From: an uncultured archaeon
GTDB lineage: Archaea; Aenigmatarchaeota; Aenigmatarchaeia; CG10238-14; SCSR01
NCBI GenBank assembly: GCA_964570195.1
Contig: CAZMWU010000001.1
Location: forward strand, 7,433 to 71,432
Length of the DNA: 64,000 nt
Reading direction: 5' to 3'
The position numbers and the translations under genes are program-made. Shown here in pieces: positions 43,840-63,200 of the stretch (its first letter is position 1; each line of letters opens with the position of its first letter). The notes below the pieces were generated by a model. The model did no database searches. It was not told where the DNA came from and was given only the letters and a program-made list of their open reading frames with translations.

Positions 43840-43857
43840 TGCTTTTTAACTTTCTAA

Positions 43858-43943
43858 TGCAGGGGGTGAGATTCGAACTCACGAAGGTACTAAACCATCG
43901 ACCCCTGAAGCCGACGCAATTGACCAGACTATGCGACCCCTGC
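43858..43943 (-). tRNA. tRNA-Leu(CAG), class II with a long variable arm. No CCA is encoded.
   Basis: Minus-strand read GCAGGGG-T-CGCA...TGCG-T-CGGCT-TTCAGGG-GTCGA-long variable arm-GTGAG-TTCGAAT-CTCAC-CCCCTGC-A. The 7-bp acceptor stem and the T arm are perfect. Anticodon CAG. Confidence 0.8.
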
Positions 43944-43957
43944 AAATCAATACGGAT

Positions 43958-48491: not shown

Positions 48492-49109
48492 TTACGGTTT
48501 TCTACCAAACAAGAAAACTATCAAAGCAAGCCCCGTCACCAGAAAAATTATCGACAATGTAGTTATGTCCAAACCACCAATCGAGCTAAATAGTTGAGTA
48601 GGTGCTATCTTTAATCCTGGAAATATCGCAGTCCCACCACTTGATATGAAGACACCAACAACTATCAATGCAACGAAAGCCAGAAGCAACCACAATACGT
48701 TGCCCTTAAAAATGTCGTTCCACATATCTGGAAGAATTCCCCCTATCATAGATACAAGAACTATCAAGACAATAAAAGTCAGAATTACTGCTACAGCTCC
48801 TCCAAAAAACTGGGCTAAAAATTGACTGAACGTTATGCCGGCAGGAGTGTAAACCATGATAAATCCAGCAGCCGTCAAAGCTACCACAACAGCAATTCCC
48901 CTTTGTTCACCAAATAATTTTGTTCTAGTCAACAGTCCAAAGAAAACAGCGAAAACTATAATAAAAGGAAGATAAAATTCAAAAACACCAATCTCCTTAA
49001 GTGTGCTTACCACATCTTGAAACCCTTGAGATAATGCAACTGAAGAAAATATCAAAACACTAAAAACAAAACCCAAACCAACTTTAGAAATATCGGCTCT
49101 CATTTTCAA
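48492..49109 (-). CDS. Paralogous polytopic membrane protein, family member 1 of 4.
   Basis: Shared N-terminal motif with its neighbours: EIG[VF]FEFYLPFIIVF...LLTRTKLFGE. Confidence 0.5.
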   Translation of the reverse strand: MKMRADISKVGLGFVFSVLIFSSVALSQGFQDVVSTLKEIGVFEFYLPFIIVFAVFFGLLTRTKLFGEQRGIAVVVALTAAGFIMVYTPAGITFSQFLAQFFGGAVAVILTFIVLIVLVSMIGGILPDMWNDIFKGNVLWLLLAFVALIVVGVFISSGGTAIFPGLKIAPTQLFSSIGGLDITTLSIIFLVTGLALIVFLFGRKP

Positions 49110-49144
49110 CTAACTCATATTTATTTTCCAAAGATTTAAACATG

Positions 49145-49684
49145 TCACTTGGCCGCTCGGACTATCACAGCTATAATTCCCACCAACGCTATCAACGCCA
49201 CCACAGACAATACCAGGTCTGATGAAAAGCTTATTCCTATTCCTTTCGGAAACAAAACTGTAGCAAGCCCACTAGAAACCAAAATCACACCCCCCACAAT
49301 CAGTGCGACAACAATAACTCCCCCCCAGAAAACCGGTGCTTTCATCCTATCACCCAAATTTTTGGCCAAATCTGGCGGGAAGAACATCCCAGCTAAAACC
49401 AATGCTATCAATACAATCAAAGATACGCTGAATCCTTGGACGAAGAATGCCGATAGCTTCGTCTCTATGTCAATCCCTAGAATTATCGGCGCAGCCCATA
49501 CGAACAAGCTGATGACAAAAGCAACAATAGCATTAACAGCGACATTCTTTTCAGGTTCCCCAAACAATTGCGCTCTTCTCAAGCCGCCATAGATTATCGC
49601 TGCCGTCAGAATGAACGGCAATAAGAAATTGAAAAATCCCAGTCCCTGCAGTTTCAATATTGCTATTTCAAAAACTGTAGGCAT
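49145..49684 (-). CDS. Paralogous polytopic membrane protein, family member 2 of 4.
   Basis: LGFFNFLLPFILTAAIIYGGLRRAQLFGE motif. Confidence 0.5.
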   Translation of the reverse strand: MPTVFEIAILKLQGLGFFNFLLPFILTAAIIYGGLRRAQLFGEPEKNVAVNAIVAFVISLFVWAAPIILGIDIETKLSAFFVQGFSVSLIVLIALVLAGMFFPPDLAKNLGDRMKAPVFWGGVIVVALIVGGVILVSSGLATVLFPKGIGISFSSDLVLSVVALIALVGIIAVIVRAAK

Positions 49685-50235
49685 TACTTGACCTCCTTAC
49701 CCATAGACATCGAGACAATCAATAATATGATAAGTATTACAAAAATAGCAACTGTTACTGTCATCAGTTCGGCAGGTACTTTAATTGCTTTGAGCAGACT
49801 TTTGAAAGGATTTCCGATAATTGAGAATAGTCCGGCAGACACAGCAAAAGCTATAGTAGCCCATACAATCCATGCAGCCGGTCCGCCGCCTTTAAAAACA
49901 TCAGGCAATTTTTCAATTATGTTCGGGTAGAAGAAACTAGCTATAAGGAATGCTACCAAAACAACCACTAAAACTATGGCGCCCTGCGTTAAAAATGCTG
50001 TCAGTGCAGGTACTATGCTTGTTCCCAAGATTACCGGTACACCGAAAACAAACATCCCGGCAACAACAGAAATGATCCCATGAATTACAACCGATTCACC
50101 AAGGACCTTTGTTTTCCTCAACACTGCATAAAGTACTGTCGTGAACAATATGAAAGGCAGTAAGAAATTATAGAATCCTATCTCAACTAGCCTCTCAACG
50201 GCAACCTGAAAGATGTTAACCATTCTATCTTTCAA
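49684..50235 (-). CDS. Paralogous polytopic membrane protein, family member 3 of 4.
   Basis: IGFYNFLLPFILFTTVLYAVLRKTKVLGE motif. Confidence 0.5.
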   Translation of the reverse strand: MKDRMVNIFQVAVERLVEIGFYNFLLPFILFTTVLYAVLRKTKVLGESVVIHGIISVVAGMFVFGVPVILGTSIVPALTAFLTQGAIVLVVVLVAFLIASFFYPNIIEKLPDVFKGGGPAAWIVWATIAFAVSAGLFSIIGNPFKSLLKAIKVPAELMTVTVAIFVILIILLIVSMSMGKEVK

Positions 50236-50268
50236 TAATTTGTTTTAGTAAAAATTTAAACATGGTAG

Positions 50269-50778
50269 TTACCTTTTGTACTTAACCCTCAAATAATCTT
50301 CGAGTTGTTTAATTTCATCATCTTTCTGTTTAAGCTGTTTAAGCAAGTCCATTTTTTTTCCTGTGCTTACAAAGACACCGCCAGAATAGTATTTCTTTAG
50401 CAACTTTGCTCTTTCTTCTGTTAAAGATTTTAATTTCTGTTCGTTACCCTGCAAACTTTTAGCTATGTTTGCACCTTTTCCGATTAATGCCCAAAAGAAC
50501 AGGACTGTAATTCCGCCCAAGGAGATAACAGTCCCAGCAACTCCTATCTGAAACAAATAAGATGCAAGGAACTGAAAAATACCACCAGGGTTTATAGCAT
50601 AAATCATTACCGTAAGTCCAAGTGAAACCAGAACGTAAACAAAAGGATTGTCACCTAAAACTTTCGTTTTTTTGATTGCAAACAGGAGCACAGTAAAAAT
50701 TATCAGAAAAGGAATCACGAAAGTTATCAACATGTTCGTTAAATTCGGTGAAAGAAGATTCTCTATGGGAAAAGCCAT
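50269..50778 (-). CDS. Paralogous membrane protein, family member 4 of 4, with a C-terminal coiled-coil tail.
   Basis: ITFVIPFLIIFTVLLFAIKKTKVLGD motif; K/E/L-rich C-terminal heptads. Confidence 0.45.
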   Translation of the reverse strand: MAFPIENLLSPNLTNMLITFVIPFLIIFTVLLFAIKKTKVLGDNPFVYVLVSLGLTVMIYAINPGGIFQFLASYLFQIGVAGTVISLGGITVLFFWALIGKGANIAKSLQGNEQKLKSLTEERAKLLKKYYSGGVFVSTGKKMDLLKQLKQKDDEIKQLEDYLRVKYKR

Positions 50779-50809: not shown

Positions 50810-51553
50810 TTAAGCGTCTCTCTTCAGTCTCTGCACCAAGTCAGTCAATGCTCTGACAGATTCTATCAATGCCGGTAACGTCTCCTTGAAAGCTTTCTCC
50901 AGGCCGCCAATTCTCGTATCGATATCACCAACACCTTCTTTGAAAATCTCTATCTTGCTTAAAATCTGCGTCTGTTCAGCATTCCTCAAATTCATTATTT
51001 CGCTTATCCTGTCGCCAACTTCCTCAATTCTTCTTTCAATCTCCTGGGCCTTGACAGAGAATTCTGTCATCTTCTGGTTTATCTCACCCATTCTCGCCTG
51101 CACAACATAGTCGACATATTCCTCAGTAGGATAATTCTGTTGGCTACCCTGGTAATATTCTTGAGGCAATGAGGTTTCTGGTAGCTGTGGTGTTTGTTGC
51201 TGTTGCTTTGGTATGATTTCCTCCAATGTAGGCAAAGCAGACTCGCTTCTAGGAGGTTCTGTCGGCATTCCTTCTGTCGGGCTGGTTGCAGCGAACTTCA
51301 AAGCTTGCGTCAATCCATTATCAATCTCTTCAGGCGAGTAGCCTTCTTTCCTCAGAACATCAATTACTTCCACTTCAGAAAAACCTCTCCCAGTCAGATC
51401 CCTCACCCTTTCAACGGGTATAGAGCCTTTTCCTTTAGCCAAAGGATTCTTCAAAAAGGGTAAAGCCATTATTCCACTATAATTAATTCCCTTTTTAATT
51501 AATATAATCCCAAGCTTTGTATACAAACATGAAGACAAGACTGGTAATCGCAA
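50810..51553 (-). CDS. Hypothetical protein with a small N-terminal helical domain, a Pro/Gln-rich linker and a C-terminal coiled coil. The likely start is the internal ATG giving MALPFLK.
   Basis: Low-complexity QQQTPQLPE linker followed by heptad-like E/R/I repeats. Confidence 0.35.
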   Translation of the reverse strand: MRLPVLSSCLYTKLGIILIKKGINYSGIMALPFLKNPLAKGKGSIPVERVRDLTGRGFSEVEVIDVLRKEGYSPEEIDNGLTQALKFAATSPTEGMPTEPPRSESALPTLEEIIPKQQQQTPQLPETSLPQEYYQGSQQNYPTEEYVDYVVQARMGEINQKMTEFSVKAQEIERRIEEVGDRISEIMNLRNAEQTQILSKIEIFKEGVGDIDTRIGGLEKAFKETLPALIESVRALTDLVQRLKRDA

Positions 51554-51939
51554 TAATTTTGTTTTTTGCTATTGTAGCGTCTTATTACTTGTCGCCGAGG
51601 CTAAGCGGCAATTCAAGTGCAGTTGATGAAAATAGAATTGTGGAAGTGGAAATGGCCATAACACACGGTGGCTATATGCCTAATAATATAACAGTAAACC
51701 TAGGAGATAAGGTCAGAATTTTAGCAATAACAACCGACCCTTCACATAGCCATGGAATAACTATCAATGAATTAAAAATTAATAAAGTAGTTTCGAAAAC
51801 ATCACCCTCTGACCCTGAAATAATAGAATTCATTGCAGGTAAATCGGGAATATTTGAAATCTATTGCAAAAGCTGTTCTGACGGTCCAATTGGTTCCCAT
51901 CCATGGTTGAAAGGTACATTGGAAATTTTATCTGATTAA
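51517..51939 (+). CDS. Small membrane-anchored or secreted cupredoxin-like beta-sandwich protein.
   Basis: N-terminal TM helix or signal; NITVNLGDKVRI...H.H...C..C....H pattern typical of the cupredoxin fold; the metal site is non-canonical. Confidence 0.35.
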   Translation: MYTNMKTRLVIAIILFFAIVASYYLSPRLSGNSSAVDENRIVEVEMAITHGGYMPNNITVNLGDKVRILAITTDPSHSHGITINELKINKVVSKTSPSDPEIIEFIAGKSGIFEIYCKSCSDGPIGSHPWLKGTLEILSD

Positions 51940-52364
51940 GTCTTTTTGTTCTTTGGGGTTCTGTAATCAAACATCTTTTCTACTTCGTCTCTTGTTACAA
52001 ACTTGGCAGTAATAGGATTTATCAAGTCTATGAAAGTCTCTATTTGTTTCAATTCCCTTTTCGTCGCAGTCTTGGACAATTCTTTGCTCAATCTTAAAAT
52101 CTCGCCTTCTATGCTCAAGAGCTTCTCCGACACAGACACAATTTTATTGTTTATTTTTTCGAGCGACAGCTTCAGGTCATTTAATTGGGTTAGCGTATTT
52201 TCTTGCAGGGACTCCAATGAACTTTCCAATCTGTCAATTCTCTGCTCTATAATTCTGATTCTTCTTGTATCTTCGTTTATTCTTTTGACGAGCTCTGTTG
52301 TTACTTTTGTAACATCTTCTTCATGCCTCTCGAAAGGCAATGTTGGTAGGGATGGTAAGGCCAT
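51936..52364 (-). CDS. Hypothetical coiled-coil protein (142 aa).
   Basis: Continuous heptad-like pattern; divergent from the pilus ATPase gene. Confidence 0.35.
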   Translation of the reverse strand: MALPSLPTLPFERHEEDVTKVTTELVKRINEDTRRIRIIEQRIDRLESSLESLQENTLTQLNDLKLSLEKINNKIVSVSEKLLSIEGEILRLSKELSKTATKRELKQIETFIDLINPITAKFVTRDEVEKMFDYRTPKNKKT

Positions 52365-52409: not shown

Positions 52410-54650
52410 TTGTTGGCTGTTGAATACGAAGTTGTCGATGGGGCTCTGAGGATAAATTGCATCAACTGGGCGATTGCCCCAAGCATAGAAGATTCCGATG
52501 CGACTATGGCAATTGTGATTGACACGCTGTTGCGAGCAAGGGATGCTGACAGGGTTGTTCTGATAGAAACTCGCGAGAACGAGTATGATGCAGAACAGAC
52601 AAAAATGCTACGCGAGATAGCAGATGCTTACAATCGGATTCTGAATATCGACAAGACAATAAGTCTGCAAAACTTTGGTCCATCACAATGCGAAAAACTT
52701 TTTCCGAAAAGATTAGCAGATTTGCAATTTTTGGTTTTAGAAATCCTGCGAAAGGATCCTATCGGCGCTTATTTGCGGACAGTTAAGATGGTAAACGCAA
52801 ACAAAGTCTTGGAAGGGACTGCTCCGTTAGAACAAAAAATTTGTTTCACACATTATTTGGACAATGCATTAATTCCAATCAAAAATATTCTTGAGGGATG
52901 CACGCTGATTCAGAAGGCTTTGCCTATTTTGCAAAATTACCAGATTGGTAGCAGGGACGTATATCGCGAAATATTTTCACCAACTGTCAGGCCCAACTTC
53001 ATGTTGACAAGATTTATGCTGGCAATTCCAAAGGGGGCGAGGATGGTTGGCAAATATTCTCTTGTTGGTGCTGAAGTCGAGATATACAAACTGCCAACAA
53101 AAGTGCGACATCTGTATCATATAACCCCGAAAGAATTTATTCTAAGTGACGAAAAATACACAATATTGGATTCTGCTAGGAGATATTTGGCTGCGCACAG
53201 ACCAACAGAAGCCGAAGCAGTCGAACCAGAAAAATCAAGGGAACTTTTTAAAAATTTGGGAAGAGATTTGGTAAGAGACGTATCAAGAAGCATGAATGTG
53301 AATTTGACCGCAGCTGAAATAGAGGAACTGGCAATAATATTGTCGAGATATACTGCAGGTTATGGTATTTTAGAGCTTTTACTATCCGACGAAAAAATTC
53401 AGGATATTTTTGTCAACGCTCCCATCGGTACAACTCCTATTTACATAAATCATTCAGATTTCGAAGAATGTGAAACAAATTTAATGCCTACGAGTGAAGA
53501 CGCAGAATCATGGGCAACAAGATTTAGATTGTATTCAGGCAGACCACTTGACGAATCTAACCCAGTTTTGGACACAGAGTTATTGGTTCCTGGTGGAAGG
53601 GCGAGAGTTGCAGCCATAACAAAAAGCCTGTCACCAGAAGGCCTTGCATTTGCATTCAGAAGACATAGAGAAAAACCATGGACTTTCCCCCTGTTCATTA
53701 AAAATAGAATGTTTGATTCTCTTTATGCAGGGTTGATGAGTTTCATTATAGATGGTGGCAGAGCTCTACTTGTTGCGGGTGGAAGAGGATCCGGAAAAAC
53801 TTCTGTTCTGAATGCCCTAATGCTAGAAATAATGCCCAAATTCAGAATCATCACAACCGAGGATACACTTGAAATTGCTGTTCCGGAAATGCGAAAGCTT
53901 GGCTTCAACATTGAAAGGATGAAATCACGTTCTGTAATTACGAAAGTAGAAACAGAGTTGCCGGCAGACGAAGCGTTAAGAACCGCATTGAGATTGGGCG
54001 ATTCCGTTTTGATTATAGGCGAGGTACGTTCTGTAGAGTCACTTGCTTTATTTGAAGCCATGAGAATTGGTGCGATGGCTAATGTAGTTGCAGGTACGAT
54101 ACATGGTGAATCTGCATACGGTGTTTATGACAGGGTTGTTCACGACCTTGGTGTCCCACCGACGAGCTTCAAAGCTTTGGATTTAATCACAATTTGTAAT
54201 CAATTAAAATCTCCAGATGGTTTGCACAAATTCAGGCGTGTAACGGAATTGACCGAAGTCAGGAAACAATGGAAAAATGATCCTTTGGATGAAGGAGGTT
54301 TTGTCAATTTAATGGAGTATTCTGCAAAGGAAGACAAGCTCAAGCCTACTGACACTTTGATTGACGGCGAGTCGCAGGTGTTGAATGAAATCGCTAGAAG
54401 AGTTAGGGAGTGGCGTGGCCAATGGGACGCCGTCTGGGACAACATTCTGTTAAGAACGAAGATAAAGGAGACAATGGTTAATTTTGCAGCCAACTTGGGC
54501 AAGGACAATATTCTTGAGGCAGAACATGTTGTTGAATCAAATGCCATGTTCCATCTTATTTCAGAGCAGGTTCGCCAAGAGGTTGGTGCACTGGATTCGA
54601 AGATGATATACGACAAATGGTTGGAGTGGTTTAAGAAAAGAATTGGTTAA
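52410..54650 (+). CDS. Type IV pilus/archaellum-type secretion ATPase (PilB/GspE/FlaI/TadA/VirB11 superfamily) with a long N-terminal extension. TTG start.
   Basis: Walker A VAGGRGSGKTSVLNAL; TTEDTLEIA; Walker B-like LIIGEVRSVE; His-box GTIHGES. Confidence 0.8.
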   Translation: MLAVEYEVVDGALRINCINWAIAPSIEDSDATMAIVIDTLLRARDADRVVLIETRENEYDAEQTKMLREIADAYNRILNIDKTISLQNFGPSQCEKLFPKRLADLQFLVLEILRKDPIGAYLRTVKMVNANKVLEGTAPLEQKICFTHYLDNALIPIKNILEGCTLIQKALPILQNYQIGSRDVYREIFSPTVRPNFMLTRFMLAIPKGARMVGKYSLVGAEVEIYKLPTKVRHLYHITPKEFILSDEKYTILDSARRYLAAHRPTEAEAVEPEKSRELFKNLGRDLVRDVSRSMNVNLTAAEIEELAIILSRYTAGYGILELLLSDEKIQDIFVNAPIGTTPIYINHSDFEECETNLMPTSEDAESWATRFRLYSGRPLDESNPVLDTELLVPGGRARVAAITKSLSPEGLAFAFRRHREKPWTFPLFIKNRMFDSLYAGLMSFIIDGGRALLVAGGRGSGKTSVLNALMLEIMPKFRIITTEDTLEIAVPEMRKLGFNIERMKSRSVITKVETELPADEALRTALRLGDSVLIIGEVRSVESLALFEAMRIGAMANVVAGTIHGESAYGVYDRVVHDLGVPPTSFKALDLITICNQLKSPDGLHKFRRVTELTEVRKQWKNDPLDEGGFVNLMEYSAKEDKLKPTDTLIDGESQVLNEIARRVREWRGQWDAVWDNILLRTKIKETMVNFAANLGKDNILEAEHVVESNAMFHLISEQVRQEVGALDSKMIYDKWLEWFKKRIG

Positions 54651-54668
54651 GGAAATCAAATAATAATT

Positions 54669-55034
54669 ATGATGAAAGGCGTAGCTATACCATATGTGAT
54701 AGCATTAATTCTTGGTGTGGTTGTGATTGGAATCCTAGGCTACTGGTTTGTTTCATATGGTGGCAGTGCGATTGGAACTGGTACACAGGCTGAATGTGAT
54801 GCATCGGATTTTAATTATTGTAAAGGATTTGTAAAAACATGGGACACAAAATGTGGAGAGCCAAATTGTGGTGAAATTAGCCCAGCAAAATGTGGCAACA
54901 CTATAAAAGAAGAAGAGGAACAGTGTGATCCACCTGGTTCTACTGAAATTAAAGATATCAAAGGTGTAGGTAAATGTACCTATAATTGTGGTGACAATTG
55001 TAAAGTTGTTAGTATATCTTGCAAGCCACCATAG
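54669..55034 (+). CDS. Pilin-like protein with a class-III signal peptide and a Cys-rich C-terminal domain (paralog 1).
   Basis: MMKG|VAIPYVIALILGVVVIG fits the [KR][GA]|hydrophobic consensus; 12 Cys in the C-terminal 75 aa. Confidence 0.55.
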   Translation: MMKGVAIPYVIALILGVVVIGILGYWFVSYGGSAIGTGTQAECDASDFNYCKGFVKTWDTKCGEPNCGEISPAKCGNTIKEEEEQCDPPGSTEIKDIKGVGKCTYNCGDNCKVVSISCKPP

Positions 55035-55065
55035 CGATTATCTTTATAAAAGCTAAATATAAATT

Positions 55066-55344
55066 ATGAAAGCAGTTGCCATACCTTATGTCATCGCACT
55101 TATTCTAGGAATAATGGTTGTTGGCATTCTTGCATACTGGCTTATTAATCAAGCTGGTAAAACAACAGCCCAAGGAGCTAGTGCAGAATGCCAAGGAAAG
55201 ATATTTTCATACTGCTTAGCATGGGATGCCCAAGGGAAGAAGTGTAGCGATGGCCAACCATCTTCTTTTGATTGGGGAAATAAATGTACTAAACCCAGTG
55301 ATTTCAAGATAGATAATTGTAAGTCCCTAGGCATTTGTACTTGA
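55066..55344 (+). CDS. Pilin-like protein with a class-III signal peptide and a Cys-rich domain (paralog 2).
   Basis: MKA|VAIPYVIALILGIMVVG N-terminus; 6 Cys. Confidence 0.55.
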   Translation: MKAVAIPYVIALILGIMVVGILAYWLINQAGKTTAQGASAECQGKIFSYCLAWDAQGKKCSDGQPSSFDWGNKCTKPSDFKIDNCKSLGICT

Positions 55345-55395
55345 GCATTTGAAGATATTTCATAAATCTTTAGTTATAGAAATCAAATAATAATT

Positions 55396-55707
55396 ATGAG
55401 AAAAGCAGTTGCCATACCTTATGTCATAGCCCTGATTATCGGAGTCGTGGTAGTCGCAGTTCTAGCTTACTGGTTTATTTCTTCTGCAGGTAAAGGTAGC
55501 AGCATCGGGACAGAGGCAGAGTGCACAGCAAGAAAGGTCGAATACTGTACCACACAAGTTACTGACGTTTGGAATAAATTTAAACAAGTCTGCGGCAATG
55601 ACGAATGGTCAAAAGCCGGATCATGCTACAATTTTTGCTCAAGCATAGTTCCGAGTTGGAAATCTACAAATAGTCAAGGTGGATCCTGTGCCCAATCCAC
55701 TCCTTAA
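55396..55707 (+). CDS. Pilin-like protein with a class-III signal peptide and a Cys-rich domain (paralog 3).
   Basis: MRKA|VAIPYVIALIIGVVVVA N-terminus; 7 Cys. The 20 nt up to and including the start codon, gaaatcaaataataattatg, are identical to those of paralog 1. Confidence 0.55.
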   Translation: MRKAVAIPYVIALIIGVVVVAVLAYWFISSAGKGSSIGTEAECTARKVEYCTTQVTDVWNKFKQVCGNDEWSKAGSCYNFCSSIVPSWKSTNSQGGSCAQSTP

Positions 55708-55773
55708 GAATCCTCGGAATGAATTAAAGAAATAAGTATAATCTTAATCTCTCCGCACGCTAAATTCTAACTA

Positions 55774-57738
55774 ATGCCAATAATTTCCCGCGAGTATGAG
55801 AAATTCCTTAGAGAGGAACAGTTAGCCAAGAAACTCACTTTCTACGAAAGATCATGCCGGTTATCAGAAAAAATTCTACCACTGTCACCACCATTTAAAG
55901 GTCTCAAAGAAAAATATAAAGAATCAATTGAATTCTCACACCTCAAGATAACACCAAAAGGTGCATTTTCCCTCTCGCTTATAACAACATTGTTAATTTT
56001 CATCGTTTCTCTAATAGCATTAGTAATATTGAATTCGTTCACTTCCTCTTCACTTATCCTCTCATCTATCCTGTCTTTAATAACATTTTACTTTTTTGTT
56101 GTCTATCCCAATCACCACGCAACTGTATTCAGAATCAATGCATCATCAGAAATGGTACTTGCAACAATCTACATGAGCATCTCAATGCATATATCACCTA
56201 ATTTGGAAAATGCGATTAAATTTGCTTCAAATAATTTGAAGGGGTCACTGTCAGTAGATTTGCGTGAATTATTGTGGGATGTGTACACTAGGAAATATGA
56301 TAAAATTGAGGATGCTTTAGATTCCTTTATTGTAAAATGGAAAAAAGACAATAAAGAGTTCGCAGAGTCGTTGTATCTTATTAAAAATTCCGGTGCAGAA
56401 TCTCAAGAAAAACGAGAAAGATTTTTGGATGAAGCAGTCTCTGTTATGTTAGATGGCACTAAAGAAAGAATGCGATTATACTCGCGCCAGCTAAAAGAAC
56501 CGGTCACAATTTTAAACGCCCTAGGGATTCTCTTGCCTATAATAGGCTTGGTTTTCTTTCCAATAATCAGTCTATTCTTGCCGGAATTAATCCAGCCTAT
56601 TTTTCTTGTAGTGGGTTATGATTTCTTTCTTCCTCTAATAGTCTTCCTTTTCATGAATAGTTATCTGGAAAAAAGACCCTACAGTTTACATCAGCCAGAT
56701 TTGAGTAAACATCCCGATTTTTCTACTGTCAAATTTTATGAAAAACCATATACTATACCACTGTTAGTTTCCTTGCCGTTGATTGCAATAGGCTTGGTTA
56801 ATATAATAGGAAAAAAGGACCTTTTTAGTTTCGGTCTACTTGTATACTCGATGTTAATCACATTAGGTTTGTTTATCGGGATTGCTACTTATTCTGCACT
56901 GTCTGTCAAAAGGAAGCTGAAAATAAGAAAAGAAATTGCAAGCATAGAAAGCGAATTCGCTGAGACATTATTTCAGTTGGGTAGCATGATACTGCGAGGA
57001 ACACCATTAGAAACAGCTTTAAGAAGAGTTAAAGAAGACATTAAGAATCTGAAAATTGCGCAATTCTTCGATAAAATATTATACAATATAGAAACATTTG
57101 GTTTGACATTCGAAAATGCTGTCTTCGACAAGACATACGGCGCAATAAATTATTATCCGTCTAATATAGTCGAATCTGCGATGCATGTAATAGTCGAGAC
57201 TTCAAAAAAAGGAATGCAAAGCGCATCCAAATCAATGATAATCATCTCCAAATACCTGAAAGATATGCATGAGGTAGAAGAAGATTTAAAAAATATGTTG
57301 GAAGAAGTGACATCAACAATGAATATACAGAGTATTCTCCTTGCTCCTTTGAGTGCAGGCGTTGTAGTCACTATTGCTGTTATAATGACGAGGCTTTTAG
57401 TTAATCTGGGGGAGACTTTAACTTCCGTTTATTCAGAGGTAGGTTCGGCTCTAGGCCCTGCTGGTGATATAGGTACAGGAGTCATATCGTCAATAGTCAA
57501 TTTAAGTGCGATCATACCAATTCACGGTTTTCAATTAATTGTTGGCGTATATATTGTTGAGATTGTGACCATTATCGCGATTACACTGAGCACAATTACA
57601 AACGGTGACGAGGGTTTAATGAAAAGGTTGACGATATCAAAACATCTCACTTACAGTTGTATCGTGTATTTCATAACTTTGTTATCCACATACTTTTTAT
57701 TCACCTCGGTTATTTCAATAGAGAAGTTAATAATCTGA
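55774..57738 (+). CDS. FlaJ/TadC/PilC-like polytopic platform protein of a type IV pilus-like system.
   Basis: 654 aa; two blocks of TM helices separated by cytoplasmic helical domains; located between the ATPase and the pilin-like genes. Confidence 0.55.
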   Translation: MPIISREYEKFLREEQLAKKLTFYERSCRLSEKILPLSPPFKGLKEKYKESIEFSHLKITPKGAFSLSLITTLLIFIVSLIALVILNSFTSSSLILSSILSLITFYFFVVYPNHHATVFRINASSEMVLATIYMSISMHISPNLENAIKFASNNLKGSLSVDLRELLWDVYTRKYDKIEDALDSFIVKWKKDNKEFAESLYLIKNSGAESQEKRERFLDEAVSVMLDGTKERMRLYSRQLKEPVTILNALGILLPIIGLVFFPIISLFLPELIQPIFLVVGYDFFLPLIVFLFMNSYLEKRPYSLHQPDLSKHPDFSTVKFYEKPYTIPLLVSLPLIAIGLVNIIGKKDLFSFGLLVYSMLITLGLFIGIATYSALSVKRKLKIRKEIASIESEFAETLFQLGSMILRGTPLETALRRVKEDIKNLKIAQFFDKILYNIETFGLTFENAVFDKTYGAINYYPSNIVESAMHVIVETSKKGMQSASKSMIIISKYLKDMHEVEEDLKNMLEEVTSTMNIQSILLAPLSAGVVVTIAVIMTRLLVNLGETLTSVYSEVGSALGPAGDIGTGVISSIVNLSAIIPIHGFQLIVGVYIVEIVTIIAITLSTITNGDEGLMKRLTISKHLTYSCIVYFITLLSTYFLFTSVISIEKLII

Positions 57739-57754
57739 AAATCAAAATTAGATT

Positions 57755-57868
57755 ATGAGGAAAGCTGTTATTTCTGTTTCTTTATGGTTTATTGTCACGC
57801 TGATCATGGTTTTAATTATTATAATGGCGGCTTTTACCATAGTGCAGAAAGGAATGTTGGTTAAATGA
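57755..57868 (+). CDS. Unannotated 37-aa micro-ORF encoding a pilin-like single-TM peptide (MRKAVISVSLWFIVTLIMVLIIIMAAFTIVQKGMLVK). It is below the length cutoff of the ORF track.
   Basis: The N-terminus MRKA|V matches the neighbouring class-III signal paralogs; ATGA overlap with the next gene. Confidence 0.3.
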   Translation: MRKAVISVSLWFIVTLIMVLIIIMAAFTIVQKGMLVK

Positions 57869-58224
57869 GAAAAGCAATCGGAATGGCATTGCAAATTTTA
57901 ATCGGGGTTATATTCATGATACTTGGTCTGATTGTTGTCTGGTCTTTTACTGAAAAGGTATCCGGATTTTCCCTTGGACTTCTTCTAGGCACAACAGCTA
58001 AAAATGCTTACTGTGGAATAGCAGGTAGTCCTGTCAAAGGAGGTATTTCGGGAGGTGCACTCGGTTTGGCTGTAGGCGGAGGTATATGTGCGGCAGGGGT
58101 GGTAGGTGCTTTCTTTACAGGGGGAATATCTCTCTCTGCTTGTGTCTTAGGTGCTAAAATAGGAGCTGGGATTGCTGTTGGGGCTGGGATAGCGGGTGCC
58201 GCATACTCGGCAACTGCATGCTAG
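57865..58224 (+). CDS. Small Gly-zipper membrane protein with a class-III-like N-terminus.
   Basis: MRKA|IGMALQILIGVIFMILG followed by GxxxG/AxxxG repeats (GGISGGALGLAVGGGICAAGVVGAFF). Confidence 0.4.
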   Translation: MRKAIGMALQILIGVIFMILGLIVVWSFTEKVSGFSLGLLLGTTAKNAYCGIAGSPVKGGISGGALGLAVGGGICAAGVVGAFFTGGISLSACVLGAKIGAGIAVGAGIAGAAYSATAC

Positions 58225-58264
58225 TAATCAAGTTATTTATCGTCTTTTAACCTAATTACAATCA

Positions 58265-59248
58265 ATGTCCAAAGCCATGGCTATTGAAGGTGTGGGAAAG
58301 ATTTTCATTATGATAGCTGTTCTTGTTGTCGGTATTGCCTTTCTGGTGAAAGCTCTAGGGATTGACCCTTTCGGATGGCTAGAAAAGAAGTTTGAGGGCA
58401 TCGATGTGCCAGAAACAGGCAAGGCCTTGCATGTTAGAATGGATGTGGATGCAAAACTTAAAGATGTATTTTCGTTCCATTTATTATCCGATAACGAAAT
58501 GCGGAAACACCATACAGATGAAGAGGGTAGTAGCTCTTATTATAGCCTATATTTTCAAATCGAATCAGATAAAGTAAAAAATCCGCTTGTCCTTGGAAAT
58601 TGTGTATTGTTAGTAACCGAGGAAGAAAAATCATCTTTTGGTATTGCTGGTGGAGCCGACAAATCTTATGTCTACTACATCAAATCCGGCACAATGATTC
58701 AAGATGATGACAAGCCCTGCCAATTTTTGGGACAATGCCTCTCTGACAAAAACTGGGATTATAAAAAATTAGTCGACAAGGGATATGGCTGTATTTCTGA
58801 TCAGGTGAGAGACGAAAATCCCAGTTGCGATAAATGTAAAAAAGCTGCAGCTCCATCTTACGATTGTATAGGTCCCTTTAGTGTTGTTAACTGTGCCGGT
58901 CAGGTTCTTCCAGGTCCCTTTGGTGATTGGCAAAAGAGTCCACCATGTGACAGCGATCACACGGTGATAAAAAATTTCGAATTCTCTGACGATATATTAA
59001 TATCCGATAGATGTGCAGAAGATGATCCAAGTGAATGCAATTTGCTAAATTATAGAGAAGTCGAAGGAAAAAGCATATTTGAAAGTAAAAGATTTATTGG
59101 CAGCAAAGTTAAATATGGCATCATCTGTGGCAATGACGGGTACTGGCATACCTGTAAACAAAACATCGAAGGAGAAGTTCCAACCCCAGATGGCACATAT
59201 ACATGTGACAGCAAGTTAGGTGGTGCAGTTTTCTATTGGAAAAAATAA
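58265..59248 (+). CDS. Secreted or membrane-anchored Cys-rich protein (327 aa) with a class-III-like N-terminus.
   Basis: MSKA|MAIEGVGKIFIMIAVLVVGIAF; about 20 Cys, including CDKCKK and CxxxC-type pairs. Confidence 0.45.
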   Translation: MSKAMAIEGVGKIFIMIAVLVVGIAFLVKALGIDPFGWLEKKFEGIDVPETGKALHVRMDVDAKLKDVFSFHLLSDNEMRKHHTDEEGSSSYYSLYFQIESDKVKNPLVLGNCVLLVTEEEKSSFGIAGGADKSYVYYIKSGTMIQDDDKPCQFLGQCLSDKNWDYKKLVDKGYGCISDQVRDENPSCDKCKKAAAPSYDCIGPFSVVNCAGQVLPGPFGDWQKSPPCDSDHTVIKNFEFSDDILISDRCAEDDPSECNLLNYREVEGKSIFESKRFIGSKVKYGIICGNDGYWHTCKQNIEGEVPTPDGTYTCDSKLGGAVFYWKK

Positions 59249-59260
59249 TCTGTGAAATAA

Positions 59261-61054
59261 ATGAGAATGCCTAGGATACCCCTGCATTTGGCATTGGCTT
59301 TAGCGCTTGGCACAGGAATAGTAGGTTATTCACTACCTAATCATTCAAGAGTTTACCAATTCTTAAGAGATACACCATCAACAGCCCGAGAATATGGTAG
59401 AGAACTGTGGGAAGCACTACCTTTCACAGAAAAAGAAGCATATCCTATAACCTCACCAGTTAGCTATACATCAACTAAGGAAGAAAAATTTACATCAATC
59501 GCACGCAGGTATTCTGGGTCATCTCCTCTGGCTATGACAAAAGATAAGAATTCAGGAGTGTTATTGCCAGGGCAAACAATAACAATAAACCCAATCACAA
59601 CTGTGATTCACGTACCTCCTGAAATATGGACGATGGCATACGGCGACCCCAGAAATGTTCCGTATATTAGAAAGATAGTGAAACGAGGCGACGAACCTGA
59701 TAAAATTTCTGTAAAAATAGAAGATGTGATTACAGGAGATTTGGGGTTGGGGCGTCCTGAAGATGTAGCCGTTGTTAGCATAATTGGACAGTTAGGTGAG
59801 AGTAGAAGCCCCTTATTATTAATCGGACGAAATGGGAAGGTGGTTTCCGTACCTTTTAGCAGGGGAGAGTATGGCAGTGGATATGTTGGGGCAATAATAA
59901 ATACAACGGATGTAACTGGCGACAATAGTCCAGAAATTATTGTTCAAGAAAGGGACATGGATTCTAATCCATGGATTCACCCAAGATTATTGCATATTTT
60001 TCGACGAAATGAAAAAGGAGATTTTCAAAACCACCCCACTTATGCAGCAGGCATTACATTAATAGAGGATGCAGACGGAAACAACATCCCTGATATATTT
60101 TCTGCTTGGTGGATACCTGCACCAGAGTTTGGTGTTAAAATCAACAGAGGACTTACATACGACCCCAAAACACTAAACATTTTAAGAACTGAATGGGTTC
60201 CAAACCCACATCCAGGAGGTTTTCTGAGCCTGACGCGAGATGAGTATAACGCACCTGAAAACATAAAAGTAGCACTGGCTACAGATTTTTTAATCAATAA
60301 CCCCAACTATCCTGAAATTTCCCGCGAGATTGAGCAGGGGCTGATAACAACATCTTCTCAATTATCTGAGATACTCAAATCATCACAACGTTCTCTTATA
60401 GATAGGATAGGATCTAATGCTTATACGCAAGCTGCAACTTTTGCAGGTAGACTAGAAATTAACAAAGGAGAAATTCTAACTTCATTGCTTTCTCCAAATC
60501 CCGAGCAAGCTATTGAGGTCGCAGAGCAGGTTCTAAGGACGTCAGACCGCCATATTATCGATTTGGCTCTTAGGGAAGCGGGGGAGGATCTTTATGTAGT
60601 CGACCTAGAAACAGATTTGGCACGACCTCTTTGGGAATATCTATCAGATGTTAGTGCGGAACGGGGTGAATTGAATGTCAGGGTTGGCGTGGAACCCCTT
60701 GCAGCATATCTTTTAACAGCATACTTGAACAATGTTGTGCCATGGGCAATCGATCAGCCGGCAGCCCTCCTTCTAACACGGGATATAGCATTGATGCCAG
60801 GAAACAGTTATGTAACAGTCAGATTAAGGCCTGACGAGAGAGGCGATTTAAAGTTATCCGGAGGATTTGAAACCGGTGAAAACGTAAGGAGATTAAATAA
60901 TGCAGTGAACTCTTATGTAATGGATAAACAACCTGAACTCGATAGATTTGAAGAGAAAATTAGGTCGGGTACTGGCATAAGGAGCATGCTGCAGACATGG
61001 GGAGAAATAGGGTTGGATACAATCGAACAACTAAGAAGACGGTTAAAAGAATAA
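59261..61054 (+). CDS. Large secreted hypothetical protein (597 aa).
   Basis: N-terminal signal-like MRMPRIPLHLALALALGTGIVG; Arg/Gly/Pro-richer composition than its neighbours. Confidence 0.4.
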   Translation: MRMPRIPLHLALALALGTGIVGYSLPNHSRVYQFLRDTPSTAREYGRELWEALPFTEKEAYPITSPVSYTSTKEEKFTSIARRYSGSSPLAMTKDKNSGVLLPGQTITINPITTVIHVPPEIWTMAYGDPRNVPYIRKIVKRGDEPDKISVKIEDVITGDLGLGRPEDVAVVSIIGQLGESRSPLLLIGRNGKVVSVPFSRGEYGSGYVGAIINTTDVTGDNSPEIIVQERDMDSNPWIHPRLLHIFRRNEKGDFQNHPTYAAGITLIEDADGNNIPDIFSAWWIPAPEFGVKINRGLTYDPKTLNILRTEWVPNPHPGGFLSLTRDEYNAPENIKVALATDFLINNPNYPEISREIEQGLITTSSQLSEILKSSQRSLIDRIGSNAYTQAATFAGRLEINKGEILTSLLSPNPEQAIEVAEQVLRTSDRHIIDLALREAGEDLYVVDLETDLARPLWEYLSDVSAERGELNVRVGVEPLAAYLLTAYLNNVVPWAIDQPAALLLTRDIALMPGNSYVTVRLRPDERGDLKLSGGFETGENVRRLNNAVNSYVMDKQPELDRFEEKIRSGTGIRSMLQTWGEIGLDTIEQLRRRLKE

Positions 61055-61102
61055 TCAACAAATTAGATATTTAAATACTCGCCAAAACAAATATAAAGTT
61101 AA

Positions 61103-61426
61103 GTGAAATTAATGAAAGCTGTCGCGGTTCCTTATATCATAGCTATTCTTCTTGGTGTTGGTGTCATCGGGTTAGTAGGTTATTGGTTATTTGTTTCCGG
61201 AGGTCAGTTCGGCGGCGGAGCCGCATCTCAACAATGCAGGACAGATTTTCTACAAACCTGCCAGAGCTGGGCGGCTGGTGGATATTTAGCAGATAACCCT
61301 GCTGATAATGGTGTTTTTAAGCACGCAGATGATAATGTTTGCATGAAGCAAGTGACAGGTAAAACCGACATGGACGATGCCACTAAAGCCATATACAGGT
61401 CTTCCTGTACAGTGGCTGGTGCTTAA
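61103..61426 (+). CDS. Pilin-like protein with a class-III signal peptide and a Cys-containing domain (paralog 4).
   Basis: MKLMKA|VAVPYIIAILLGVGVIG N-terminus. Confidence 0.5.
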   Translation: MKLMKAVAVPYIIAILLGVGVIGLVGYWLFVSGGQFGGGAASQQCRTDFLQTCQSWAAGGYLADNPADNGVFKHADDNVCMKQVTGKTDMDDATKAIYRSSCTVAGA

Positions 61427-61451
61427 TTTCTATATTTTCTAAATCTATTAT

Positions 61452-61742
61452 ATGTCCAAAGCCGTTGCAACGCAAGCTGTTTTCCTGGTGGGCGTCATCG
61501 CCATTCTATTTTTCTTCATAACCGCTATTTTCTTCGGCTGGATTAAAGGAACTAAAATAGTTACCACTCAAGCTACATGTGTAGTGAAGCAAAGGAGCTA
61601 TTGCAGTGAATGGTCTGTAGCAGGAAAGGAGCCTGACTGGTGGGGAGAAAGGGAGCCTAAGAATTGTGAGAGCGCGGACTTTCAAATAACCAAACCTAGT
61701 TGTAACGACTGTAAGAAGATATACTCTGCTATGAGATGCTAA
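61452..61742 (+). CDS. Pilin-like protein with a class-III signal peptide and a Cys-rich domain (paralog 5).
   Basis: MSKA|VATQAVFLVGVIAILFFF N-terminus; 7 Cys. Confidence 0.5.
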   Translation: MSKAVATQAVFLVGVIAILFFFITAIFFGWIKGTKIVTTQATCVVKQRSYCSEWSVAGKEPDWWGEREPKNCESADFQITKPSCNDCKKIYSAMRC

Positions 61743-61769
61743 TAATTTATCAGAAAACAAAATAATCTT

Positions 61770-62141
61770 ATGTTGAAAGGCTCCGCCGCCACAAACGCCC
61801 TTACCATTGTAGGTGTGGGACTTGTGAGCGTAATAATGTTTGCCCAAGTCCCTGACATGGTAAAAGATATAAGATTGGTTTTGTCGAAAGATTCTGTCAT
61901 AGCAAAATCGGCAGAGATAGCAGATTTGTTAACTCGCACAGCATCAGTGCCAGGGGACATCAAAATTACCCATAAACTATCCGATGAAGTTTCTTACACC
62001 ATTTCGATTAAAAACGGTTATGTAAATATCAGCACTGAAAACGATTGGGCGGTGTCAAAGACATTTTCGAATGTGGAATTCGAGTCAGAAAATGTAAAGT
62101 CACTCCTGATAACAAAAACTAGTATCATAAAGGTTGAATGA
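61770..62141 (+). CDS. Pilin-like protein (class-III-like N-terminus, no Cys-rich domain).
   Basis: MLKG|SAATNALTIVGVGLVSVIMF N-terminus. Confidence 0.4.
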   Translation: MLKGSAATNALTIVGVGLVSVIMFAQVPDMVKDIRLVLSKDSVIAKSAEIADLLTRTASVPGDIKITHKLSDEVSYTISIKNGYVNISTENDWAVSKTFSNVEFESENVKSLLITKTSIIKVE

Positions 62142-62769
62142 TATGAAAAAAGGGCAACAATCGGCAGAGATATTATTCTCAGTTACCATTGCTGTGCTTC
62201 TTGCAGGAATCCTTTTACCAGCGATTCCTCTTGGTCAAGCAACTAAAATAGCTCCAGAAGTGCAAGCCAAGGAATTTGAAAACAAGGCGATTATTTTAGC
62301 AAATTCCTTTTTGGACAATCCGGATTTAATTTATTCTGATTCTTACGGTTCTTATCATGGGATGTTCGATACAACAAATTTCGAAAATATTTTTTATGAA
62401 AGCGATTCTGATTCAGCCTTGTACACATGCAAGCCAAATCTAAGCAATTGCAAACTACCGACTTATCCAGAGACTTTCGCATTGGTGATAGTTGTTGATA
62501 TAGAAAACGATAATGGGTGGTTCACCGGTACACACAGGTTGACTGGTTCAGAGTCACAAGTTACCAATATAATTTCATGTTTCCAAAATAGAGTAACCAT
62601 AAATTATCCCGACTTGTTCAAGGCTGGCTCTTATACAGCCGAAGTTTTAGAATTAGACAATTGTAATTTACACAGATATTCGCATCTTAATTTAGTTTTT
62701 CCTGTCTCACTCAGATATTCAGACGGCAGGATTAACAAGGGCGTACTAAAAGTTCTGGTGGTCGAATGA
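62134..62769 (+). CDS. Pilin-like protein with a bacterial-type-IV-pilin-like N-terminus.
   Basis: MNDMKKG|QQSAEILFSVTIAVLLAGIL, with Gly at -1 and Glu at +5. Confidence 0.45.
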   Translation: MNDMKKGQQSAEILFSVTIAVLLAGILLPAIPLGQATKIAPEVQAKEFENKAIILANSFLDNPDLIYSDSYGSYHGMFDTTNFENIFYESDSDSALYTCKPNLSNCKLPTYPETFALVIVVDIENDNGWFTGTHRLTGSESQVTNIISCFQNRVTINYPDLFKAGSYTAEVLELDNCNLHRYSHLNLVFPVSLRYSDGRINKGVLKVLVVE

Positions 62770-63200
62770 AATCGCAATCCATACTTGACATACCTTTGAT
62801 GGGAACAATAGCAATAATAATTATTCCATTGTCTATAATACTTCCCCCCACCATAATTAAAATGACACTCGACAAAGAAATTGTATATACCTTCGAATAT
62901 GAAAAGACACAGTATACTTTACTTGCATTGCTGTCGTCTACCTATAATGGCAATCATTTATACGAAATAATCGCGAACAATATCGACAACCCCGAGAATT
63001 TAGAATTTTTAAAAGATGATATTAACAAACTTGTAGAATCCAAGTGTTATACCATCCAAGTCGGCGACGGAAACGAGTTCGCTCCTATAGTCGAGAGCGG
63101 CAGTTGCAACAAAAAATACACTTTCACTACAATAATTACACTTCCCTATAGCCCTGATTCTAAATCACGTGTAAAATTGTTGAGGATTGATGTAGGATGA
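62766..63200 (+). CDS. Small protein with an N-terminal TM helix (possible minor pilin).
   Basis: MKSQSILDIPLMGTIAIIIIPLSIIL N-terminus; ATGA-coupled in the pilin operon. Confidence 0.3.
   Translation: MKSQSILDIPLMGTIAIIIIPLSIILPPTIIKMTLDKEIVYTFEYEKTQYTLLALLSSTYNGNHLYEIIANNIDNPENLEFLKDDINKLVESKCYTIQVGDGNEFAPIVESGSCNKKYTFTTIITLPYSPDSKSRVKLLRIDVG

Follow-up and report, generated by a model that had tools for sequence, protein, structure and literature searches.

Predicted pilin paralogs with nucleotide-identical 5' ends in a type IV filament locus of an uncultured aenigmatarchaeote

Three tandem genes for small cysteine-rich proteins in an uncultured archaeon of the Aenigmatarchaeota begin with identical stretches of nucleotides and then diverge, which raises the question of whether they are recent duplicates, partners in gene conversion, or old paralogs held alike at one end. 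The genes, here called p1, p2 and p3, lie in a stretch of 64,000 nucleotides (nt) of contig CAZMWU010000001.1, hereafter the window, between the genes for a predicted type IV filament assembly ATPase and its platform protein; two further genes, p4 and p5, lie 5 kb away. A preliminary description of this DNA had suggested recent duplication or gene conversion. We consider it likely that p1-p3 are long-established paralogous pilins of a type IV pilus-like filament, with rare conversion of short tracts at their 5' ends. Our comparisons draw on related loci numbered L001 onward, 71 of them found through the ATPase (nearly all labelled Aenigmatarchaeota) and four through p3 homologues. The features on which the argument turns are these, with protein lengths in amino acids (aa):

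54652-54672, plus strand: first copy of a 21-nt tract, GAAATCAAATAATAATTATGA, comprising the p1 5' flank and start codon and carrying AAATCAAAT at -16
54669-55034, plus strand: p1, predicted pilin, 121 aa, 10 cysteines, leader MMKG then VAIPYVIAL...; an open reading frame (ORF) whose orthologues in L060, L002, L008, L006 and L007 share AECDxxxFNYCKGF
55066-55344, plus strand: p2, predicted pilin, 92 aa, 6 cysteines; orthologues in L060, L002 and L006, probably also in L004 and L005
55345-55395, plus strand: p2-p3 spacer, holding the out-of-frame relic KSLVIEIK (then two stops) of an ancestral p2 C-terminus; the second copy of the 21-nt tract starts at 55379
55396-55707, plus strand: p3, predicted pilin, 103 aa, 6 cysteines, 100% identical to NCBI HYS80_01010 (Candidatus Aenigmarchaeota)
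61067-61111, plus strand: predicted promoter and 5' untranslated region of p4, ATATTTAAATACTCGCCAAAACAAATATAAAGTTAAGTGAAATTA, with a TATA-like TTTAAATA and a partial Shine-Dalgarno AAGTGA
61112-61426, plus strand: p4, predicted pilin, 104 aa from the ATG, 4 cysteines, candidate major pilin, equal to NCBI HYS80_00160
61452-61742, plus strand: p5, predicted pilin-like protein, 96 aa, 6 cysteines, MSKA then VATQAVFLVGV...; orthologues with KAIAVQAVFLIAVIAISLFFIVAIFWGWIDTT in L060, L002, L007, L008, L009 and L027

Short identical tracts at the pilin gene 5' ends

The two nucleotide identities first noticed in these genes are both exact and unique within the window. The 20-mer GAAATCAAATAATAATTATG, which runs through the start codons of p1 and p3, occurs only at 54652-54671 and 55379-55398, and the leader identity continues for one more base, to 21 nt, GAAATCAAATAATAATTATGA, at 54652-54672 and 55379-55399. 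The segment common to p2 and p3, GCAGTTGCCATACCTTATGTCAT, occurs only at 55072-55094 and 55405-55427 (expectation 0.00); it belongs to a longer coding run of 26 nt, AAAGCAGTTGCCATACCTTATGTCAT, at 55069-55094 and 55402-55427, which corresponds to p2 codons 2-10 and p3 codons 3-11. A reading of the 20-mer as a genome-wide ribosome-binding motif was discarded, as no further match appears in the window even when up to 3 mismatches are allowed (chance expectation 0.06).

Identity of this kind can arise from protein constraint as well as from sequence transfer, and as an empirical control we compared nucleotides -30 to +90 of all p1-p4 genes from ten genomes, recording the longest exact match of each gene pair. 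Non-orthologous pairs from different genomes are under the same protein constraint and have no opportunity for conversion; for these pairs (n=279) the longest match had a median of 9 nt, a 99th percentile of 15.7 nt and a maximum of 20 nt. The paralog pairs within genomes (n=31) include tracts of 26, 24, 21 and 20 nt, so that tracts of at least 20 nt occur in 4/31 within-genome against 1/279 between-genome pairs (Fisher p = 3.9e-4), a statistic that rests on four events among non-independent pairs. The p2-p3 tract alone gives ~4e-4 uncorrected and is marginal after multiple-testing correction.

Similar exact tracts are present in the independent metagenome-assembled genomes (MAGs) L008 and L027. 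The clearest in kind is p4 of L008, where ATATTTAAATACTCGCCAAAACAAATATAAAGTTAAGTGAAATTA-ATG, the strongly conserved leader that p4 has everywhere else, is replaced by the p1-type leader of the same genome over 24 identical nt. In the window, p3 starts K-A-V-A-I-P-Y-V like p1 and p2, whereas most p3 orthologues have A-M-P-V-P-Y-I, and this start would fit a transfer of roughly the first 26 nt from p2 to p3. Over the N-terminal module as a whole, amino-acid identity is 0.60 within genomes and 0.55 between non-orthologues of different genomes (p = 0.014), with orthologues at 0.70; the ranking indicates that conversion is sporadic and short and that orthology dominates. The suggestion of gene conversion is partly supported, and only as short tracts of 20-26 nt, which are in excess within genomes; some of the upstream identity is ancestral. 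By their sequence the few short identical patches look like micro gene conversion, and the short conversion tracts constitute a minor but clear case of concerted evolution, confined to the assembly module.

A competing account, to which we give a smaller though real share of probability, holds that the 5' stretches are functional elements (a translation-initiation or promoter signal, or the target of a regulator) kept identical by selection. It gains from the recurrence of AAATCAAAT at a fixed position exactly 16 nt before the ATG in several genes and genomes (p1 in the window, L007 and L008; p3 in the window and L060; p4 in L008), from the p3 upstream 20-mer, conserved at 17/20 positions in L060, and from the p4 leader, which is far better conserved than coding DNA: 96.6% identical to L005 over 89 nt as against ~77% in coding DNA, nearly invariant in L060, L005, L002, L007 and L009, and flanked further upstream by unrelated sequence. 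The origin of the p2-p3 spacer argues the other way. In L060, L002 and L006 the bases upstream of p3 are the 3' coding end of p2, which reads ...ELGIEIK and a stop in L060 and ...IGIEVG and a stop, directly before p3, in L002 and L006; in the window p2 stops earlier, and the out-of-frame KSLVIEIK with its two stops remains downstream of that stop. The motif is missing upstream of many orthologues, L002 and L004 having no spacer, and identity is higher within the genome (20/20) than across species (14-17/20). Genome-specific variants, such as AAATCAAATTATTTCT in both p1 and p4 of L008, are a signature of concerted evolution, and the 26-nt tract lies inside coding sequence at which other paralogs use different codons. 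An ancestral AAATCAAAT motif apparently accounts for part of the upstream identity, and the 45 nt before p4 are probably, to judge from their TATA-like motif, a strong promoter and leader of the main pilin gene.

Class III-type signal peptides and the filament locus

What kind of protein these genes encode is indicated first by their N-termini, which read (a slash marking the predicted cleavage site) MMKG/VAIPYVIALILGVVVIGILGYWF, MKA/VAIPYVIALILG..., MRKA/VAIPYVIALIIG..., MKA/VAVPYIIAILLG... and MSKA/VATQAVFLVG.... In all five a short basic leader ending in K-G or K-A passes immediately into a hydrophobic stretch of ~22 residues, with the predicted site before it. Class III (prepilin-type) signal peptides are built in this way, with a charged leader ending in [K/R/D/E]-[G/A/S] that is cleaved off before a hydrophobic H-domain of ~20 residues. 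The K-A and K-G sites match those studied experimentally in archaeal pilins, among them KA/IS, KG/IS, RA/LS and RA/VS (PMC4371748, Table 1). A motif scan of every window ORF found class III-like N-termini in ten proteins in 54669-62769 and one more at 48492; as they are nearly confined to that interval, the module is not a generic signal peptide. The narrowness of the family supports the same conclusion: a family profile run against 1.84 billion proteins retrieved only 377 cluster representatives (E <= 1e-3), and the listed matches are all small proteins aligned from at or near the N-terminus. The concern that the shared N-terminus might be a feature found genome-wide is answered by both results.

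The genomic setting is the second indication. The pilin-like genes are placed between and downstream of two machinery genes:

52410-54650, plus strand: type IV filament assembly ATPase of the FlaI/TadA/VirB11 superfamily, 746 aa (Pfam T2SSE 6e-17)
55774-57738, plus strand: polytopic platform protein, TadC/PilC/FlaJ-like, 654 aa, ~9 transmembrane segments, weak Pfam T2SSF match; adjoins the ATPase in 54 loci

When p1-p5 and 18 neighbours were scanned against Pfam and NCBIfam, only the ATPase and, weakly, the platform gave matches. The NCBIfam models matched by the ATPase are FlaI (2.6e-38) and TadA (1.6e-35), both far below their equivalog cut-offs. An archaellum was considered and rejected, the FlaI model scoring 132 bits against a cut-off of 550, and the absence of archaellin, FlaH, FlaF and FlaG among the 18 flanking proteins points to a pilus-type rather than an archaellum-type system. 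Both indications, class III-type signal peptides and a position between a type IV filament ATPase and a platform protein, uphold the pilin-like identity proposed in the preliminary description, and by sequence comparison p1-p5 appear to make up a narrow family of their own outside existing Pfam and NCBIfam models. Proteins identical to p3 and p4 are deposited as 'hypothetical proteins' of a Candidatus Aenigmarchaeota MAG (HYS80_01010, HYS80_00160).

The five proteins share their N-terminal layout to different degrees. The contrast drawn earlier between near-identical N-termini and divergent cysteine-rich heads survives as a constant module carrying variable heads: the N-terminal 26 residues of p1-p3 are 70-77% identical, the first 14 being nearly identical, and the heads are 20-28% identical. 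The module had also been said to recur 5 kb away. This is right for p4, whose N-terminus is 48-65% identical to those of p1-p3 (the ORF list gives a GTG start at 61103 and an ATG lies at 61112), and overstated for p5 (61452), whose N-terminus is only loosely related (35-38% identical), shares only the K-A-V-A start and has a different hydrophobic segment. Among homologues, p3 has 33 at 47-61% identity over most of its length, with conserved EAECTARKxEYCATQ and IIPxWK; p4 is 79% identical to its L060 orthologue, and over the N-terminal 34 residues its 29 homologues hardly differ.

The heads have a common chemistry. Cysteine counts are even in all five proteins, and the first two cysteines form a conserved C-x7-C located in a predicted helix: in p3 the distal part of the long one, in p4 the second one. 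AlphaFold2 modelled p3 (34 sequences, predicted local distance difference test (pLDDT) 79) as a single long helix (residues 7-53) with two short ones after it, and p4 (29 sequences, pLDDT 71) as helices 8-28, 38-55, 76-82 and 92-101. At these pLDDT values of 71-79 the heads are modelled as small and all-helical, whereas the heads of solved archaeal pilins are usually beta-rich, and the family may possibly have a new head fold. In such models C-x7-C and the even cysteine counts would fit disulfide stapling of a small helical head. As a separate observation, the p1 head (54870-54935, residues ~74-90) contains KCGNTIKEEEEQCDPPGS, and the L060 orthologue has SCGNGKIDTPLGEECDPPNS; the former resembles the cysteine-rich CGDGxxxxGEECD repeat of Myxococcus-type secreted proteins, a likeness that no NCBIfam or Pfam match supports.

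The proteins might instead function outside a filament, as small cysteine-rich surface proteins, anchored by their N-termini or conventionally secreted, or as substrates or pseudopilin-like parts of a secretion or binding system that the same ATPase would drive, akin to the Sulfolobus bindosome; we hold this to be rather unlikely. In its favour are the lack of homology to known pilin families, the predicted all-alpha heads in place of the beta-rich heads of solved archaeal pilins, the failure to find a peptidase nearby, and a weak match of the ATPase to the NCBIfam bindosome ATPase BasE (1.3e-16, far below cut-off). Yet heads of 60-95 aa are too small for substrate-binding proteins, the K-[GA] site comes before the hydrophobic domain, behind which a conventional cleavage site is lacking, and the near-invariance of the p4 H-domain is expected for packing of a filament-core helix rather than for a simple anchor. 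The locus also has a full set of ~ten class III-type proteins, as Epd, Aap and Ups loci do (PMC4858521).

Age of the paralogs and selection on their parts

If the five genes are predicted pilins, the remaining question is when they arose. The order ATPase, one to three pilins, platform and then p4-p5 is kept in L002-L009, L027 and L060. The window, L060, L006 and L002 have three copies between ATPase and platform; L004, L005, L007 and L008 have two, and L009 and L027 have one. Pilin genes at this position are found nearly only in the closest clade (ATPase at least 82% identical), with the partial distant contig L054 as an exception; in the other distant genomes ATPase and platform are adjacent, and any pilins detected lie further downstream, at the p4/p5 position. 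The genes p1-p3 are accordingly an expansion, varying from one to three copies between ATPase and platform, that is found nearly only in the closest clade.

A joint protein alignment resolves five orthogroups with paralog-specific head signatures: AECDxxxFNYCKGF in p1, AECQAKxFSxC...DCKxIGIEVG in p2, SSGGKG..EAECTARKxEYCATQ...IIPxWK in p3, VSGGQFGGG..QQCRTDFLQxCQxW in p4 and KAIAVQAVFLIAV... in p5. Nearly all heads of nine related genomes best match the window paralog at the same position, the exceptions being distant or ambiguous (p1 of L006, p4 of L008 and L009, and a tie for p3 of L004). Head identity is 30-72% between orthologues, falling to 18-26% for the most distant p4 and p5, and 12-28% between paralogs. 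These separations are older than the divergence of genomes whose ATPases are 91% (L060, L006) or ~90% (L002) identical to that of the window in amino acids and only ~77-79% in DNA. The paralogs are old and subfunctionalised, and p4 and p5 occur in loci across the phylum.

Synonymous sites agree with this age. Within the first 27 codons, positions that encode the same amino acid in two window paralogs were scored for codon identity, and the counts were set against the expectation from window codon usage. Observed and expected counts were 6 and 6.6 for p1-p2, 8 and 7.0 for p1-p3, 5 and 5.6 for p1-p4, 3 and 5.2 for p2-p4, and 4 and 4.7 for p3-p4; only p2-p3, with 12 against 7.0, exceeded expectation, and its excess lies wholly within codons 1-8. 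The recent duplication offered as one option by the preliminary description is refuted by the presence of positional orthologues in as many as nine related genomes, together with synonymous codons at chance level in five of the six pairs. That option, in which divergence has not yet reached the 5' ends and has been fast, under diversifying selection, in the heads, had the tandem genes of like orientation, the exact 5' identities of 20-26 nt and the copy number of 1-3 among close relatives to recommend it. We now regard it as very improbable: L060, L006 and L002 carry orthologues of p1, p2 and p3 in unchanged order, paralog synonymous sites are randomised outside the short tracts, the paralog heads are only 12-28% identical, and independent parallel duplications elsewhere are unlikely given the paralog-specific head signatures.

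Least probable of all is that the repeats reflect mis-joined or collapsed paralogs in a MAG, tandem paralogs being a known difficulty for assemblers, since the separately assembled contig L001 (Logan SRR12113430) is 100% identical over 55349-57186, p3 and its upstream tract included, the tracts are shorter than the k-mers that typically cause chimeras, all ORFs remain intact, in a collinear order shared with four to nine other genomes, and similar tracts occur in the independent L008 and L027.

With long-established paralogs as the preferred reading, the constancy of one end and the variability of the other can be followed in substitution rates. Against L060, the nearest species, nonsynonymous divergence (dN) is 0.016-0.25 in the N-modules, 0.20-0.71 in the heads, 0.059 in the ATPase and 0.098 in the platform, so the heads evolve 3-12x faster than the ATPase in dN. 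Synonymous divergence (dS) between the window and L060 is undefined or >1 for every gene; with dS saturated, only dN is usable, and a dN/dS test of the heads is uninformative. Each head nevertheless keeps a paralog-specific conserved core and cysteine framework across species. A population check on the one independent contig, L001, found no polymorphism over its stretch. By these comparisons the constant N-terminus appears to be maintained by purifying selection on a processing and filament-core module, and it is this strong selection on a shared module, not recent duplication, that accounts for the near-identical N-termini.

Proposed filament, related systems and neighbouring genes

From the signal peptides and the machinery genes we infer cleavage and filament formation along the following lines. 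The precursors would enter the membrane via their N-terminal hydrophobic segment, and a signal peptidase of class III, encoded elsewhere in the genome, would cut after K-[G/A]. The FlaI/TadA-like ATPase (52410-54650) and the TadC-like platform (55774-57738) would then lift the subunits from the membrane into a filament whose core consists of the packed, conserved N-terminal helices, with the small disulfide-stapled heads exposed on the outside. Rare conversion over ~20-26 nt between the conserved 5' ends would yield the exact nucleotide identities. As clade-specific extra pilins, p1-p3 may be minor or alternative subunits presenting different surfaces, in the manner of PilA1-6 of Haloferax volcanii, and they are probably co-transcribed with the machinery genes. 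The candidate for the major subunit, on sequence criteria, is p4, given its occurrence throughout the phylum, its highest conservation (79% to L060, with an invariant H-domain) and its own conserved, predicted TATA-like promoter. Both p5 and the larger proteins of class III type (57865-59248, 61770-63200) are candidate minor pilins or tip components.

Several points weigh against a pilus built of these proteins, besides the non-independence and marginal correction already attached to the conversion statistics. The platform match to T2SSF (0.003) is below the Pfam cut-off. Pfam and NCBIfam scans of p1-p5 gave only spurious sub-threshold matches at E <= 0.1, a PDB profile search with the pilin-like proteins came back empty, and the p3 and p4 models, of moderate confidence (pLDDT 71-79), matched no solved pilin. 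A class III signal peptidase was absent from a Pfam scan of four candidate multi-transmembrane window proteins, and a GxGD[K/R] motif scan on both strands of 2.3 Mb (the 64-kb window and related flanks), in which the source genome is represented by 64 kb only, found no peptidase. To our knowledge a filament has never been observed for the Aenigmarchaeota lineage, and we know of no experimental work on Aenigmarchaeota surface filaments.

A bolder version, which we put forward tentatively and regard as doubtful, would make these proteins an undescribed structural class of archaeal type IV pilin with all-alpha disulfide-stapled heads of ~60-95 residues on a near-invariant core helix, in which recurrent conversion over very short tracts keeps the assembly modules of the clade-specific p1-p3 compatible and the modelled heads diversify for host attachment. 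DPANN archaea are thought to live attached to hosts, and surface filaments are prime candidates for the contact; if this version were true, head diversification would set the host-attachment specificity of these presumed ectosymbionts.

One close parallel is with the adhesion pilins PilA1-PilA6 of Haloferax volcanii, reportedly the subject of work by Esquivel et al. in 2013. These too are several paralogs with a conserved N-terminal H-domain and divergent C-terminal parts; the H-domain is nearly invariant and required for assembly, and different paralogs give different adhesion behaviour (PMC4371748). Their processing site, [R/D]-A then V-S, is very like K-A then V-A here. The differences are that p1-p5 have no detectable homology to PilA (no DUF1628/PilA-type Pfam match), that the pilA genes are scattered, apart from pilB and pilC, whereas the genes here are inside the machinery operon, and that p1-p5 have far smaller, cysteine-rich heads (60-95 aa) predicted to be all-alpha. 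Operon structure is shared with Epd of Methanococcus maripaludis and Aap and Ups of Sulfolobus acidocaldarius, where machinery and several class III-signal proteins with K-G/K-A motifs stand in one operon and an abundant major pilin with its own expression signal is accompanied by several minor pilins. Those systems are built from other pilin families with beta-sandwich heads, often glycosylated and not disulfide-rich, and are experimentally verified.

Two further comparisons are with bacteria. The Neisseria pilE/pilS system likewise has a conserved 5' part, a variable head and non-reciprocal short-tract transfer between paralogs, but there the donors are partial cassettes, silent and promoterless, and conversion acts on the variable head. 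In this locus the copies are complete ORFs with orthologues, the tracts lie in the leader and the conserved 5' coding end, and the effect is homogenising. Antigenic variation of the Neisseria type was accordingly rejected, all copies being complete ORFs with cross-species orthologues and no tracts lying in the heads. Tad/Flp pilins and Geobacter PilA-N resemble these proteins in being very small, with a long N-terminal helix and TadA-type ATPases (TadA is among the best ATPase matches here); they are bacterial, have a G then xxxxE[Y/F] site and no disulfide-stapled head, and the likeness is an analogy only.

Within archaea the locus has the logic and architecture of the predicted 'dark matter' pilin loci of DPANN genomes, where a secretion ATPase and a TadC-like protein are accompanied by a series of small, unannotated proteins that have signal peptides and are predicted to be fast-evolving pilins; it was Makarova, Wolf and Koonin (2019) who predicted a pilin role for DPANN signal-peptide proteins beside a secretion ATPase and TadC (PMC6393860). 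Tandem duplication is described as common among pilin genes (PMC4858521), and the FlaI and FlaJ homologues reported in an Aenigmarchaeota survey (PMC8407114) probably correspond to this locus. Surveys of DPANN and archaeal type IV pili (PMC6393860, PMC4858521, bioRxiv 10.64898/2026.04.22.720090) do not describe the Aenigmarchaeota family, its orthogroups, the clade-specific insertion or the short tracts, and the string 'Aenigm' is absent from the text of the 2026 survey (bioRxiv 10.64898/2026.04.22.720090). What the present analysis describes is an unannotated narrow pilin family with slight 5' concerted evolution, and no new mechanism. It assigns a block of 'hypothetical proteins' (~54.6-63.2 kb) to a type IV filament system, supplies five pilin orthogroups whose diagnostic motifs could seed a profile family, and names a candidate major pilin with a strongly conserved predicted promoter; a constant N-terminus with a variable head is the normal signature of pilin paralogs and not of recent gene birth.

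The remaining genes of the locus and its edge are listed below.

51936-52364, minus strand: coiled-coil protein, 142 aa, divergent from the ATPase; same position and orientation in L002, L003, L004 and L005; no Pfam family above cut-off
57865-58224, plus strand: Gly-rich protein, 119 aa, MRKA then IGMALQILIG..., class III-like motif; no Pfam or NCBIfam match
58265-59248, plus strand: cysteine-rich protein, 327 aa, MSKA then MAIEGVGKIFIMIAVLVV..., class III-like motif, candidate minor pilin or adhesin; no Pfam family above cut-off
59261-61054, plus strand: protein of 597 aa inside the locus; no Pfam match
61770-63200, plus strand: three small ORFs of 123, 211 and 144 aa, the first two candidate minor pilins; no Pfam family

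In the last group the 123-aa ORF begins MLKG then SAATNALTIVG... and the 211-aa ORF MNDMKKG then QQSAEILFSV..., both class III-like.

On the far side of the ATPase, four adjacent paralogous small membrane proteins of 205, 179, 183 and 169 aa, without a Pfam family, are encoded on the minus strand at 48492-50778, and the middle two share a (F/Y)NFLLPFIL motif. Coiled-coil proteins at 50810-51553 and 51936-52364, also without a Pfam family, come after this run. A similar unannotated minus-strand run (142, 210-224, 165-167 and 178-179 aa) precedes the ATPase in L002-L005, likened by size and, for the 142-aa gene, by position. The membrane and coiled-coil run may be accessory parts of the pilus machine. 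At the same edge of the locus, a 140-aa ORF on the plus strand (51517-51939) has a signal or anchor at its N-terminus and a cupredoxin-like domain (Pfam 5e-08), and partly overlaps the ends of the minus-strand genes 50810-51553 and 51936-52364.

The machinery genes show variation of their own among relatives. ATPase homologues of 1240-1780 aa in Aenigmatarchaeota (L064:10001-13786, L066:3493-8742; also L070, L071, L073 and L074) contain one or two inteins with a LAGLIDADG homing endonuclease in the P-loop ATPase domain, and the window ATPase is intein-free. Directly after the platform gene, L002:7663-8315, L004:12139-12754 and L005:6185-6849 hold a two-gene module that looks like a toxin-antitoxin pair: the first gene encodes a small protein, of MazE/AbrB type in L002 and L005 and unannotated in L004, and the second a PIN-domain protein; the window has the unrelated 119-aa Gly-rich gene (57865-58224) at this position.

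Elsewhere in the window, ARAGORN places a tRNA-Leu(CAG) on the minus strand at 43857-43944, which a local Rfam scan scores at 46.6 bits against a cut-off of 29; that a whole-window Rfam scan at the gathering threshold missed it is a filter effect, not biology. The G+C content is 27-30% at ~8-20 kb, in a region of glycosyltransferase and membrane-protein genes, as against 38-42% in the pilus locus, and this low-G+C region may be a surface-polysaccharide island of different origin.

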